A program made the translations under genes and the position numbers. A stretch of DNA of 41,416 bases, taken from the sequence record DRR378314_174; one strand, written 5' to 3'. Numbering within the stretch: the stretch's first letter is position 1; each line of letters opens with the position of its first letter. Under the pieces are notes generated by a model. The model made no database searches. It was not told the origin of the DNA and saw only the letters and a list, made by a program, of their open reading frames with translations. Shown here piece after piece: positions 38,687 to 41,416 of the stretch.

Positions 38687-39397
38687 ATGCGCCAATCGCG
38701 GCGTGCGCCCCCCATTATCAATGCCCCGCCATTCGTTACGGCGTTGGCCTTGGGAATCATCGCGCTTCACGGCCTGCGGATCCTCGCAGGATCCTCGCTC
38801 GACCTGTTCTTTGTGGATCTCGGCGGGGTGTTTCCCGATCGATTCTGGGGCTGGATCGCAGGACAACAGGTCCCTGGAGGCTACGCGCCCTATAATAATG
38901 CCTTGGAGGCTCTGATTCCTTTGGCCGGAACGGCGCTTGTTCATGGCAGCTGGTCACACGTCCTGATGAATACGATCATGCTGATCGCCGTCGGGAAGCC
39001 GGTCTATTCGGTCTTTGCGCGGCTCTGGCGCTCTCAACTCAGTGTAAATCTGGCGTTCCTGGGCCTGTTTGTGGCTGCGGTCGTGGGTGGGTCTCTCGCG
39101 CATCTTGCGACTCACTACCCCTCTGGTCCGCCGGCCATTGGCGCGTCTGGTGGTGTTTCAGGGCTGATTGCTGCGGCTTTGATGATCCAGAACGGCCTGC
39201 CCGCGCAGCTTCTGGAGCGCCGATTCCTTTCGGCCAGCGCCGTATTCCTTGTGGGCAACATCGTTCTGGCATTCCTTGGGCCGTCATTGTTCGGGTCCGC
39301 AATCGCCTGGCAGGCCCATATTGGCGGCTATGTAGCGGGCGCAGTGCTGTTTCGCTTCATGGTGCGCCACGCAGGACGCGCACGATTCGGCACCTAA
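38687..39397 (+). CDS. Rhomboid family intramembrane serine protease
   Basis: HGSWSH..MN, IGASGG, AWQAHIGGY. Confidence 0.92.
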   Translation: MRQSRRAPPIINAPPFVTALALGIIALHGLRILAGSSLDLFFVDLGGVFPDRFWGWIAGQQVPGGYAPYNNALEALIPLAGTALVHGSWSHVLMNTIMLIAVGKPVYSVFARLWRSQLSVNLAFLGLFVAAVVGGSLAHLATHYPSGPPAIGASGGVSGLIAAALMIQNGLPAQLLERRFLSASAVFLVGNIVLAFLGPSLFGSAIAWQAHIGGYVAGAVLFRFMVRHAGRARFGT

Positions 39398-39477
39398 TCG
39401 CGTCTTCCAGGGAAATATGGTAGGCTCCTTCCATACGAGGCACCCAAAAAGGGGCCCAAACGCCAGGGAGGACGTGG

Positions 39478-39912
39478 ATGACCATAGACCAAATTCTGAA
39501 AGACAAGGGATTCGCCATCATTTCGGTGAGTGCCGGAGAGACATTGGCGGCTGCAGCGCAAACGTTGGATGCCAAGAGAATCGGCGCGGTCGTTGCGCTG
39601 GATGATGATGGCAGCATTGTCGGGGTACTTTCAGAGCGGGATATTGTCCGCCATGTGGCCCGGCAGGGCGCTAGCGCACTGAACTTGAATGTCGGCGACG
39701 CGATGACACGCGACGTAATCACGGTGGAATCCAGCTCCAAAATAGACGATGCGCTTCAGCTGATGACGGATCGCAGGATTCGTCACTTGCCTGTTTTGAC
39801 CGGCGGGAAGCTGGCCGGTGTGATCTCGATTGGAGATTTGGTGAAGTGGAAGATCGCGGAAACTGAAGCAGAAGCAGAAGCGATGAAGTCTTACCTTTCA
39901 GCGCAATACTAG
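39478..39912 (+). CDS. CBS-domain pair protein
   Basis: IGAVV, G.LSERDIV, MT..RIRHLPV, G.ISIGDLVK. Confidence 0.92.
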   Translation: MTIDQILKDKGFAIISVSAGETLAAAAQTLDAKRIGAVVALDDDGSIVGVLSERDIVRHVARQGASALNLNVGDAMTRDVITVESSSKIDDALQLMTDRRIRHLPVLTGGKLAGVISIGDLVKWKIAETEAEAEAMKSYLSAQY

Positions 39913-40018
39913 GCGAAAGCCCCCGTATTCATTGGGCTGTTTCAATTAACGCTCCAGACTGGCTGAGTTGCGTCTGAAGTTTCGCTGCAGTTTTGTGATG
40001 AAATCCTGCATTAGGGGG

Positions 40019-40047
40019 TTGCTGGATACGGGGGGCGGGAGTACATC
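40019..40047 (+). promoter_or_regulatory. rrn promoter copy 1 (diverged)
   Basis: TTGCTG-N17-TACATC followed by GCCACC, at the position homologous to the other copies. Confidence 0.5.
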
Positions 40048-40276
40048 GCCACCTCCGCTGACGAGGCCTTCGGGTTTCGGACGCGGGGCCCGGTGACGGA
40101 GCGCCTGACTGGCTACGGAAGTTTTCAACTCTTCCCCAGGCAGGACCCGGTGTCGGTTCCCTGAAATCGCTCGGATCTGCGAGCCGGACATGCTTCGGCC
40201 AACGGGATCTTTTGCGTCGTAAACAGGGCAGTTTGGATGGTTAAACATTCTACTGCAGGCGACGCAAAATAGGGTG

Positions 40277-40305
40277 TTGACGGGAAGAACGGCGGTCCAT
40301 ATAAG
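40277..40305 (+). promoter_or_regulatory. rrn promoter copy 2
   Basis: TTGACG-N17-TATAAG, GC-rich discriminator CCGCCAC. Confidence 0.85.
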
Positions 40306-40525
40306 CCGCCACTCGCTGACGAGGTCTTCGGATTTCAGAGGCGGCCCGGCAACGGGGTTTGGCCAGATTGGAAGACTTGATTTTCCGTGGACAGACAATG
40401 GTGCCGGTTTCCTGAAACGCTCGAATTTGCGGGCCGAATATGCTTCGGCCAACGAGTTCATTTGCGCCAAAATTGAGGCGGAAATGGTGTCTGACACCGG
40501 ACTGCAGAAGAGGCGGAAAAGAGTG

Positions 40526-40554
40526 TTGACGGGAAGAGCGGCGGTCCATATAAG
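40526..40554 (+). promoter_or_regulatory. rrn promoter copy 3
   Basis: TTGACG-N17-TATAAG, discriminator CCGCCAC. Confidence 0.85.
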
Positions 40555-40775
40555 CCGCCACTTCGCTGACGAGATCTTCGGATTTCAGAGGCGGCCCGGC
40601 AGCGGGTTTTGATCGGTTCGGAAGTCTAATTCTTCCGCGAGCAAAACAAGGTGTCGGTTTCCTGAAACGCTCGAATATGCGGGCCGAATACTTTTCGGCA
40701 GGCTGGTTCATTTGCGCCAAAATTGAAGCGGAAACGGTGGCTGACACCTAACTGCAGAAGGGGCGCAAAAGGGAG

Positions 40776-40804
40776 TTGACGGAAAGAACGGCGGTCCATA
40801 TAAG
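40776..40804 (+). promoter_or_regulatory. rrn promoter copy 4
   Basis: TTGACG-N17-TATAAG, discriminator CCGCCAC. Confidence 0.85.
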
Positions 40805-41034
40805 CCGCCACTTCCGCAGAAGATGCCTTCGGGCTTCTGAAGCGGGTCCGCTGAAAAGCTCACCTGGTTGGTGAAAAAGTTCTTGAACTTTTCGTCGAAC
40901 AGGGGCTATATATGCGGTTCCTCGAAACGCTCGAATTTGCGGGCCGGATCATTTCGGCAGGCGGTTCATTTGCGCTAAAATTCAGGCAGCCCGGATGGTC
41001 AAACGTCTAACTGCAGAAGGCGCAAAAAAGAGTG

Positions 41035-41063
41035 TTGACGGGATGATCGGCGGCCCATATAAG
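41035..41063 (+). promoter_or_regulatory. rrn promoter copy 5 (proximal)
   Basis: TTGACG-N17-TATAAG, discriminator CCGCCAC. Confidence 0.87.
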
Positions 41064-41122
41064 CCGCCACTTCCGGACGGGCCCACGGGCTTCTGATGGA
41101 GACCTTCGGAGCTTCGGTTCCA

Positions 41123-41136
41123 GCTGTTTGACATCG
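41123..41136 (+). promoter_or_regulatory. boxA-like rrn antitermination element
   Basis: GCTGTTTGACATCG resembles boxA (GCTCTTTAACA), lies after hairpins in the proximal leader, and occurs only once. Confidence 0.6.
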
Positions 41137-41368
41137 TAAGAGATTAGGAAGAGAAACGCAGGCGGCGTGATAGCTTGCGGATAAGGCTTCGGCCTTTCCA
41201 AACGATCACGACGGATGCGTTTCTTGAGAGAAAATTCTTTTTCCATCGACCAGGTCATACTGGTCTTTGTGACTAAGGGTTTCTCGTCAAAAGAACGCAA
41301 TACTTAAATGCTTAACAGCTTGAGTAGCCGTCCATATTCCAATGGATGGTTTTCGTCAGGTCAACACT

Positions 41369-41416
41369 CAACTTGAGAGTTTGATTCTGGCTCAGAACGA
41401 ACGCTGGCGGCAGGCT
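41369..41416 (+). rRNA. rrs: 16S rRNA, 5' end (truncated by window)
   Basis: AGAGTTTGATTCTGGCTCAGAACGAACGCTGGCGGCAGGC, the conserved alphaproteobacterial 16S start. Confidence 0.97.

Follow-up and report, generated by a model that had tools for sequence, protein, structure and literature searches.

In the marine Hyphomonas sequence analysed here, a window of 41,416 nucleotides, the 16S rRNA gene is immediately preceded by a tandem array (40019-41063) in which promoters are interleaved with modules that encode a conserved, covarying RNA fold. The array is made up of one weak distal promoter-like site, four promoters of identical type and, between them, four modules of about 215-225 nt. The array promoters are predicted to be active, of the rRNA type recognized by sigma-70, and stand in series 5' of the 16S gene on the same strand. 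The reading we favour, tentatively and with a little less than even confidence, is that each unit of about 250 nt couples such a promoter to a transcribed, self-folding leader module that protects the transcripts of upstream promoters and leaves stable fragments behind. Stacked rRNA promoters are already known; an RNA cassette coupled to each promoter appears undescribed, as no description of a conserved covarying cassette of this kind was found in open-access papers and preprints, supplements aside.

Bacteria with a single rrn operon must route all ribosome synthesis through one locus. Evolution has repeatedly copied this cassette of promoter and structured RNA, and the fold was kept in every copy across several species, which points to an RNA-level need of multi-promoter rRNA transcription that is undescribed in E. 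coli or mycobacteria.

Promoters and modules of the array

The features of the region are the following.

38687-39397, + strand: gene of a rhomboid-family membrane protease (Pfam PF01694, E 4.2e-17)
39478-39912, + strand: gene of a CBS-pair protein, the final gene 5' of the array (Pfam PF00571, E 4.3e-26)
40019-40047, + strand: P0, distal weak promoter-like site TTGCTG-N17-TACATC, read from the sequence
40049-40276, + strand: module u0, with 25 of 25 model pairs standard in its 3' half
Helices of u0, + strand (MFE and model alignment): A 40062-68/40073-79; C 40117-21/40131-35; D 40171-73/40180-82; E 40183-87/40195-99
Helices of the u0 arm, + strand (MFE and model alignment): F 40210-20/40259-69, in the shorter delimitation 40211-18/40261-68; H 40228-31/40253-56; G 40235-39/40246-50
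40277-40305, + strand: predicted promoter Pc1, TTGACG-N17-TATAAG then CCGCCAC (motif count)
40311-40525, + strand: module u1, with an R1 match of its 3' half at 40408-40525 and 22 of 24 model pairs standard
Helices of u1, + strand: A 40321-26/40331-36; C 40369-75/40381-87; E 40433-37/40445-49; G 40486-90/40494-98
40526-40554, + strand: predicted promoter Pc2 (motif count)
40560-40775, + strand: module u2, with an R1 match of its 3' half at 40658-40775 and 22 of 25 model pairs standard
Helices of u2, + strand: A 40571-76/40581-86; C 40619-24/40632-37; E 40683-87/40695-99; G 40736-39/40745-48
40776-40804, + strand: predicted promoter Pc3 (motif count)
40810-41034, + strand: module u3, with 25 of 25 model pairs standard
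Helices in the 5' part of u3, + strand: A 40817-39 (stem 40825-27/40832-34); C 40875-81/40886-92
40883-40912, + strand: Pint, internal promoter-like site TTGAAC-N18-TATATA in u3, a nearly invariant block in single-copy species
Helices in the D region of u3, + strand: D 40931-33/40940-42; D' 40933-40/40961-67; E 40943-47/40954-58
Helices of the u3 arm, + strand: F 40969-76/41019-26; H 40986-89/41011-14; G 40993-97/41004-08
41035-41063, + strand: predicted promoter Pc4, proximal to the 16S gene and kept in all loci of the genus (motif count)
41108-41136, + strand: hairpin GGAGC-UUCG-GUUCC then boxA-like GCTGTTTGACATCG, in the true leader only and invariant in the genus
41369-41416, + strand: first part of the 16S rRNA gene, which runs on beyond the window (positions 1-48 of Rfam RF00177, E 1.4e-07)

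The motif TTGACG-N17-TATAAG has four matches in the 41-kb window, where 0.04 would be expected; all lie on the + strand within 40277-41063, and each is followed directly on its 3' side by the GC-rich sequence CCGCCAC. The promoter of a unit consists of an A-rich tract, TTGACG, a 17-nt spacer, TATAAG and a GC-rich discriminator. In 47 of 61 loci, a regular expression found a motif related to P0 about 256 nt 5' of the first canonical promoter, and TACATCGCC, a variant of P0 in the window's clade, was spotted by eye. The −10 element of Pint is missing from u0-u2. Repetition of the whole unit was detected by TRF (period 250, 2.2 copies, 86% matches at 40274-40814) and by a repeat search of the window, which returned four-copy families spaced 250-260 nt apart.

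The 5' half of a module comprises three hairpins, A, B and C; the predicted transcription start lies a few nucleotides 5' of A. The 3' half, of about 115 nt, comprises the short helix D, an extended hairpin D'-E and then a long irregular hairpin, F-H-G, of about 17 bp with internal loops. D' is formed by the loop of D pairing with the linker 3' of E, while H (GCAG/CUGC) encloses G. The 3' strand of the F-H-G arm stops about 12 nt 5' of the next −35 element, and the 3' strand of F itself overlaps the A-rich tract of the next promoter (about −38 to −50). Helix F of u2 was read off the sequence as 40711-18/40762-69, with 8 of 8 pairs; that of u1, which the model mis-registers, was likewise obtained by reading as 40461-68/40512-19, with 7 of 8 pairs and one G.G. 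Next to the covarying stems, the sequences of loops and linkers are conserved: GGUYAAAC in the loop of G, ACUGCAGAAG and GUUCWKUU. Of the copies in the window, u3 is the nearest to the single module of other species.

The original prediction, made from the letters of this DNA, had proposed five sets of recurring helices, all of which are found here, at or within 1-2 nt of the predicted places. Its tetraloop hairpins are helix A; its GGAAG/CUUCC type is helix C, present in all four modules; the hairpin that it assigned to all four full units is helix E; its long-range pairing is helix F, which exists in u1 and u3 also; and its fifth set is helix G, again present in all four modules. Helices B (between A and C), D, D' and H are new.

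The true leader, downstream of the array, has a counterpart of hairpin A at 41081. The boxA-like GCTGTTTGACATCG occupies 41123-41136, in the leader that follows the fourth and last canonical promoter, and its exact match is unique in the window; together with the hairpin before it, it presumably resembles boxB/boxA. Within the modules, a single match with three mismatches (40486-40499) was found for the boxA-like element, which is chance level (5 found versus 4.2 expected). A scan of 39300-41416 revealed no intrinsic terminator in the array, the sole terminator-like site of the scan (39773-39790) being inside the CBS gene, and a search for tRNA and tmRNA gave no matches. Open reading frames of 112-183 aa run over the array on both strands; they match no Pfam family and were treated as spurious.

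Selection on the RNA fold

Covariation was assessed by a cognate-strand test, in which each distinct 5' strand of a helix is paired with each distinct 3' strand, so that the result is independent of column register. Cognate strands paired better than non-cognate strands in all eight helices, with 0-1 of 5000 permutations as low; the z-scores were −6.5 for A-inner, −5.4 for A-outer, −7.6 for C, −4.5 for D, −5.3 for E, −9.5 for F, −4.0 for H and −9.2 for G. As controls, 20 cross-helix pairings gave z-scores from −3.1 to +1.7, and 60 random window pairs gave a mean of 0.14 with an sd of 1.6 and a minimum of −5.0.

A covariance model of the 3' half, R1, was built from 19 sequences and contains 25 pairs. 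In the R1 alignment of 103 Hyphomonas copies, which is fitted to the model and so leans towards its structure, 92.3% of 2468 cells are paired versus 79.6% after shuffling, and the covariation score is 0.447 versus 0.235 for shuffled alignments and at most 0.074 with slid partners. Changes on both sides were seen in 20 of the 25 pairs; the copies share kinship, and such counts overstate the number of independent events. The 35 copies from sister genera, taken by themselves, are 91.1% paired versus 69.5% shuffled, with a score of 0.574 versus 0.216. The covariation that the original prediction expected in a larger alignment is therefore present in both sets, each of which beats its shuffles.

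The strand on which the fold acts can be read from its wobble pairs. At paired positions, G-U outnumbers A-C by 393 to 43 and by 132 to 15 (about 9:1), and the fold is therefore that of sense-strand RNA. The 3' halves of the four copies in the window fold with z = −3.16, −3.36, −2.70 and −2.88 in the sense orientation and with −1.69, −2.27, −0.86 and −0.23 in antisense. Across 32 modules the sense MFE was below the antisense MFE in every one, with mean z of −2.5 versus −1.7 (40 shuffles each). Compensatory changes, the excess of G-U and the lower sense folding energies together bear out the proposal that selection acts on RNA structure beyond promoter DNA.

Support for the fold is strong in the 3' half of about 115 nt and weaker in the 5' half, which contains A, B and C. 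On a sequence-only alignment, 75.9% of cells in the 5' half are paired versus 66.8% shuffled, with a score of 0.285 versus 0.160; two of five measures fail to beat shuffles (188/500 and 317/500), and a −1 slide reaches 0.184. Of 58 distinct sequences, nearly all are predicted to form the stem of hairpin B, with a mean z of −0.66 and z < −2 in 6. Of the structured unit of about 220 nt that had been proposed, the 3' half is thus well supported and widely conserved, while its 5' half, compared within Hyphomonas, is statistically weaker.

Helices D and D' overlap, and both covary. The inner two pairs of D are formed in each of 102 sequences, in three pair types; D' has the strongest cognate z of all helices, −9.7, which amounts to −9.9 in Hyphomonas and to −3.9 in the sister genera, whose sequences differ much. 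D and D' are either alternative pairings or an H-type pseudoknot. The signal of D' stands out only in the register-tolerant test. A closing helix K (CGCUC/GAGUG), suggested by MFE folds, was rejected (cognate z = −1.5, with 349 of 5000 permutations as low); K plus D', scored column by column on a MAFFT alignment, reached 0.270, barely above the 0.246 of a +1 slide. On the plain MAFFT alignment RNAalifold recovered only 16 pairs because hairpins are mis-registered there, and a naive column-stack scan was dropped as too noisy.

The suggestion that the fold lies outside known families agrees with searches of Rfam 15. No match in the window reached gathering score, and at E up to 10 the only credible match in 39900-41416 was 16S, the four others (three miRNA models and sul1) being far below gathering; the congener locus L066 gave the same picture at E up to 1. 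An identity with 6S RNA was considered and rejected: the region has no RF00013 match, and all 3 Hyphomonas genomes searched have 6S candidates at other places (over the cut-off in 2). With the module, the known set of structured bacterial RNAs gains a well-supported candidate.

Transcripts in a congener and the role of the modules

Expression was examined in a congener with a complete genome (locus L066, where the sense strand is minus). Between 92 and 100% of the words of a 900-nt stretch are present in eight RNA-seq runs from two studies, and long contigs span the whole 1718 nt in 3 of the 4 runs examined; such contigs give neither strand, true ends nor levels, and DNA carry-over is possible. 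In X4 and X6, many short contigs lie between the long ones, with a k-mer depth of 1.4e5-3e5 across about 431-618; in X3 the k-mer depth is 6.8e4 across about 522-614, where a 58-nt contig at depth 24,964 is included. For comparison, depth is 1.4e3-4.1e3 in the proximal leader and 4.4e2-8e2 in the upstream gene region. By this coarse contig measure, which is strandless and leaves ends unmapped, the 3' half exceeds its flanks in k-mer depth by a factor of roughly 10-100 in 3 of 4 runs. The fourth run, X1, yielded one flat contig with no depth peak over the 3' half. The upper depth edge lies near the start (about 620-623) predicted from an internal promoter-like site, TTGCCC-N18-TATATG, the equivalent of Pint; on the lower side, the edges fall at the bases of helix F (first copy) and D' (second copy), and the depth edges adjoin A/U-rich single strands. 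These data are a hint of transcription and unusual stability of the 3' half in the congener. The abundant fragment fits either of the roles first envisaged for the modules, a protective leader or a processed ncRNA.

In the model that we favour, the extra promoters would load more RNA polymerase on the only rrn operon. Transcripts from upstream promoters would have up to about 1.1 kb of untranslated RNA ahead of the boxA-like antitermination site, and every module, by folding during synthesis, would deny Rho, RNases and R-loops any free RNA. The 3' half, being resistant to nucleases, would outlast processing as the abundant fragment. We infer this protective role, and several points count against it. 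The conserved loops and linkers suggest a specific partner, of which a purely protective fold would have no need; in single-copy species only about 215 nt separate Pint from boxA, a distance short to need protection; and a dedicated small RNA would account just as well for a steady-state depth about 50-100 times as great as in the proximal leader. The absence of the peak in X1 (1 of 4 runs) also speaks against protection.

The main alternative, possible but on balance unlikely, is that the 3' half is instead the gene of an abundant trans-acting small RNA, which the rRNA-type promoters would express at a level tracking rRNA synthesis. Its targets might lie in protein or RNA titration or in ribosome biogenesis, for example; the array would be a multi-copy sRNA cluster and read-through into 16S secondary. 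The depth of the 3' half, 10-100 times that of both flanks in the three runs, argues for such an RNA, as the flanks include the proximal leader that is fed by all promoters. So do the depth edges near a predicted start and helix bases, the sequence conservation of loops and linkers beside covarying stems, and the preservation of an intact RNA in every copy through repeated amplification. However, no intrinsic terminator follows any module in the scanned region, the RNA always adjoins the next promoter and is found nowhere else in the 5 Hyphomonas genomes searched, X1 has no peak, and differential stability of a processed leader fragment accounts for the depth equally well. Somewhat more doubtful is the specific version in which the 3' half represents a new class of growth-rate-coupled small RNA of the Hyphomonadaceae, encoded by a tandem gene array, whose compact fold (a D/D' pseudoknot or switch plus F-H-G) would bind a specific partner such as a ribosome-assembly or transcription factor.

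The positions of the lower depth edges, at the bases of F and D' beside A/U-rich single strands, would also suit hairpins that serve as processing signals. Long irregular helices are typical RNase III substrates, and F-H-G with its A/U-rich linkers could provide RNase III/RNase E sites at which long 5' extensions are trimmed, so that all promoters yield the same pre-16S. Processing alone, however, leaves the high level of the fragment and the covariation of both D and D' unexplained, and as the whole explanation it is improbable. Support for both of the overlapping helices would be expected if the 3' half were an RNA switch in which the D/D' balance, set by a ligand, a protein or transcription speed, controls the passage of polymerase into the operon. 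Yet an H-type pseudoknot with a one-nucleotide first loop would fit both helices too, there is no terminator, ribosome-binding site or other expression platform downstream, and no known riboswitch was matched in Rfam; a switch seems slightly less probable still. Finally, a promoter always follows the 3' half directly, F extends with its 3' strand into the A-rich tract, and both parts travel together in every duplication, as they would if conservation acted at the DNA level only (on a UP element, activator sites or a cruciform) and the RNA fold were incidental. This is very improbable: paired positions change compensatorily without sequence conservation there, sense folding energies and z-scores exceed those of antisense, and contigs from RNA libraries span the region. 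In particular, a purely DNA-level explanation is disfavoured by the excess of G-U, which neither a DNA duplex nor a cruciform tolerates.

The nearest known systems share some features with the array and differ in others. The rrn operons of E. coli have a UP element, a leader with boxB-boxA-boxC, and two promoters about 120 nt apart. The Hyphomonas array shares with them tandem promoters, an A-rich tract 5' of the −35, a GC-rich discriminator, and a hairpin with a boxA-like element before 16S. It differs in that four to five promoters lie about 250 nt apart, rather than two at about 120 nt, and in that the boxA-like element occurs once, after the last promoter, whereas the modules lack it and have a fold of their own. 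Accounts of such arrangements include, in the parts of the sources that bear on them, the tandem P1/P2 promoters of E. coli rrn (PMC5179076) and mycobacterial rrnA, with two tandem promoters in M. tuberculosis and five in M. chelonae, for which duplication is invoked (PMC10218544). Mycobacteria resemble Hyphomonas in having one or two rrn operons with stacked, duplication-born promoters of sigma-70 type 5' of 16S, and there the stacking is thought to raise or tune rRNA synthesis; the relevant part of that source describes no conserved covarying RNA fold between the promoters (PMC10218544). In Hyphomonas, unlike mycobacteria, each promoter is tied to a structured RNA cassette that was amplified repeatedly with differing unit lengths.

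Small RNAs derived from stable RNA operons are also known, such as rrA, rrB and rrF from E. coli rrn operons (PMC8144298) and 3'ETS-leuZ from a tRNA spacer (as cited in PMC12559287). As far as the relevant parts of these sources go, they are like the Hyphomonas RNA in being co-transcribed with stable RNA genes and persisting past processing; they are unlike it in coming from the 3' end or a tRNA spacer, in being single-copy and in having known partners (Hfq, CsrA and sRNAs). The Hyphomonas RNA, in contrast, lies in the 5' leader between promoters and is tandemly repeated. A further comparison is offered by put of phage HK022, a cis-acting leader RNA that modifies the transcribing polymerase. 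The put RNA likewise forms two or three stem-loops in nascent RNA near a promoter, but it has no sequence or Rfam likeness to the Hyphomonas modules.

Distribution and history of the cassette

The leader was matched in 67 of 80 genomes of the genus, and in 50 of the 51 of good quality. All leader matches fall in one place in 6 of 6 single-contig genomes, indicating a single rrn operon; statements on whole genomes for the window's own lineage rest on G001, which is 99% identical, and on congeners. Every one of the 108 copies that R1 detected, from 70 sources, belongs to the rrn-upstream array and has the rRNA-sense orientation, and whole-genome searches of 5 Hyphomonas genomes confined it to that one locus. 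The cassette is specific to the rrn locus.

Among 61 loci the proximal promoter is always present and the count of further canonical promoters varies. There is no further canonical promoter in 37, three of which have a variant promoter and a second RNA copy. The remaining loci have one extra promoter at about 196 nt (7 loci) or 150 nt (2 loci); two at 194-195 nt (1 locus), 136-140 nt (5 loci) or about 252-259 nt (5 loci); or three at about 250 nt (4 loci, the window included). The four-copy layout of the window recurs in a Hyphomonas atlantica record. The short units retain just the promoter and the 3' half of the module.

Beyond the genus, R1 was found in 4 of 18 genera among 151 genomes of the family (28/28, 22/28, 5/19 and 3/4 genomes), and records of Henriciella carry the element; none was found in the other 14 genera searched or in 8 outgroup loci. 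In the sister genera, the matches of all 20 loci fetched stand shortly before the proximal promoter, at 320-390 nt from 16S, and some of these loci carry arrays in which up to five promoters follow one another at intervals of about 159 nt. The cassette of promoter and 3' half is ancestral to Hyphomonas, Henriciella and two further genera, and older than the array. It has been tandemly amplified several times independently, with periods of about 136-140, 150, 160, 196 and 250 nt. The array of units that had been predicted from the window is a real repeat, but the module itself predates the array and most congeners have it in single copy.

Related species with one to five copies and cassettes of about 136 to 250 nt constitute a natural test series. 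The survival of long untranslated pre-rRNA leaders against Rho, RNases and R-loops can be tested in it, as can the idea that the fragment represents a new small RNA linked to the making of ribosomes.

The order of duplications was examined in a tree of 76 full-length modules, from which four mis-trimmed or atypical rows had been excluded. Module u3 groups with the modules at the proximal position in eight other species and with the single modules found in the remaining ones. Modules in distal and internal position form position-specific clusters that span about nine species (SH-aLRT 95-100). Clustering by position across species indicates that the 250-nt array predates these species; the array is old, and its diverged copies kept the fold. 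The only recent extra duplication in the window's lineage is the one that gave u1 and u2.

Promoter segments and the sister-genus arrays

In each rRNA-type promoter of the array, the −10 hexamer is followed by a segment (TATAAG CCGCCAC) that we take to resemble the GC-rich discriminator found in rRNA promoters under stringent control, for example E. coli rrnB P1.

40300-40316, segment following the −10
40549-40565, segment following the −10
40799-40815, segment following the −10
41058-41074, segment following the −10

The rrn-upstream loci of the sister genus (L115-L126) carry up to five TTGACGG-type promoters in an array 5' of the 16S gene, spaced by approximately 159 nt, with the 3'-half RNA (the widely conserved core of the module) present in one copy ahead of each promoter. 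The −10 elements of these promoters are graded variants: TATAAG, TATATG, TAAGAG and TAGAAG.

At the opposite end of the promoter, the −35 element together with the bases directly upstream forms the sequence GAGTGTTGACGGGA (window positions 40521-40537 and 41030-41046). This sequence is complementary to TCGTCAGGTCAACACTC (41353-41369), which directly adjoins the 5' end of 16S, over 17 nt at 82% (inverted-repeat pairs I2 and I3), a match of which about one is expected by chance per 1.5 kb. Each of the two sequences is kept across the genus. Judged from their positions, GAGTGTTGACGGGA and TCGTCAGGTCAACACTC would reside together on one RNA only if it were transcribed from upstream promoters.

Helices of the modules and the true leader

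Two helices in the 3' half of the module, D and D', overlap, and each is supported by covariation; together they may represent a pseudoknot or alternative folds.

40931-40933/40940-40942, helix D, with an equivalent in every unit
40933-40940/40961-40967, helix D', with an equivalent in every unit

The true leader, between the last promoter and 16S, contains an inverted repeat 3' of its boxA-like site.

41152-41177/41199-41224, inverted repeat, 26 nt, 81% complementary

Genus-invariant sequence lies on the flanks of this repeat and the hairpin tip is variable; the element (41152-41224) probably belongs to the stem region involved in 16S processing.

BoxA-like matches and open frames

Hairpin G of module u1 (GGTGTCTGACACCG, window 40486-40499) is identical to the boxA-like sequence of the true leader at 11 of 14 positions, and such matches occur in the window at chance level (five found versus 4.2 expected).

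Three open frames cross the repeat array.

39946-40497, minus strand, 183 codons
40250-40747, minus strand, 165 codons
40274-40612, plus strand, 112 codons

A Pfam search of these frames returned no family, and gene finders would likely annotate them as hypothetical proteins.
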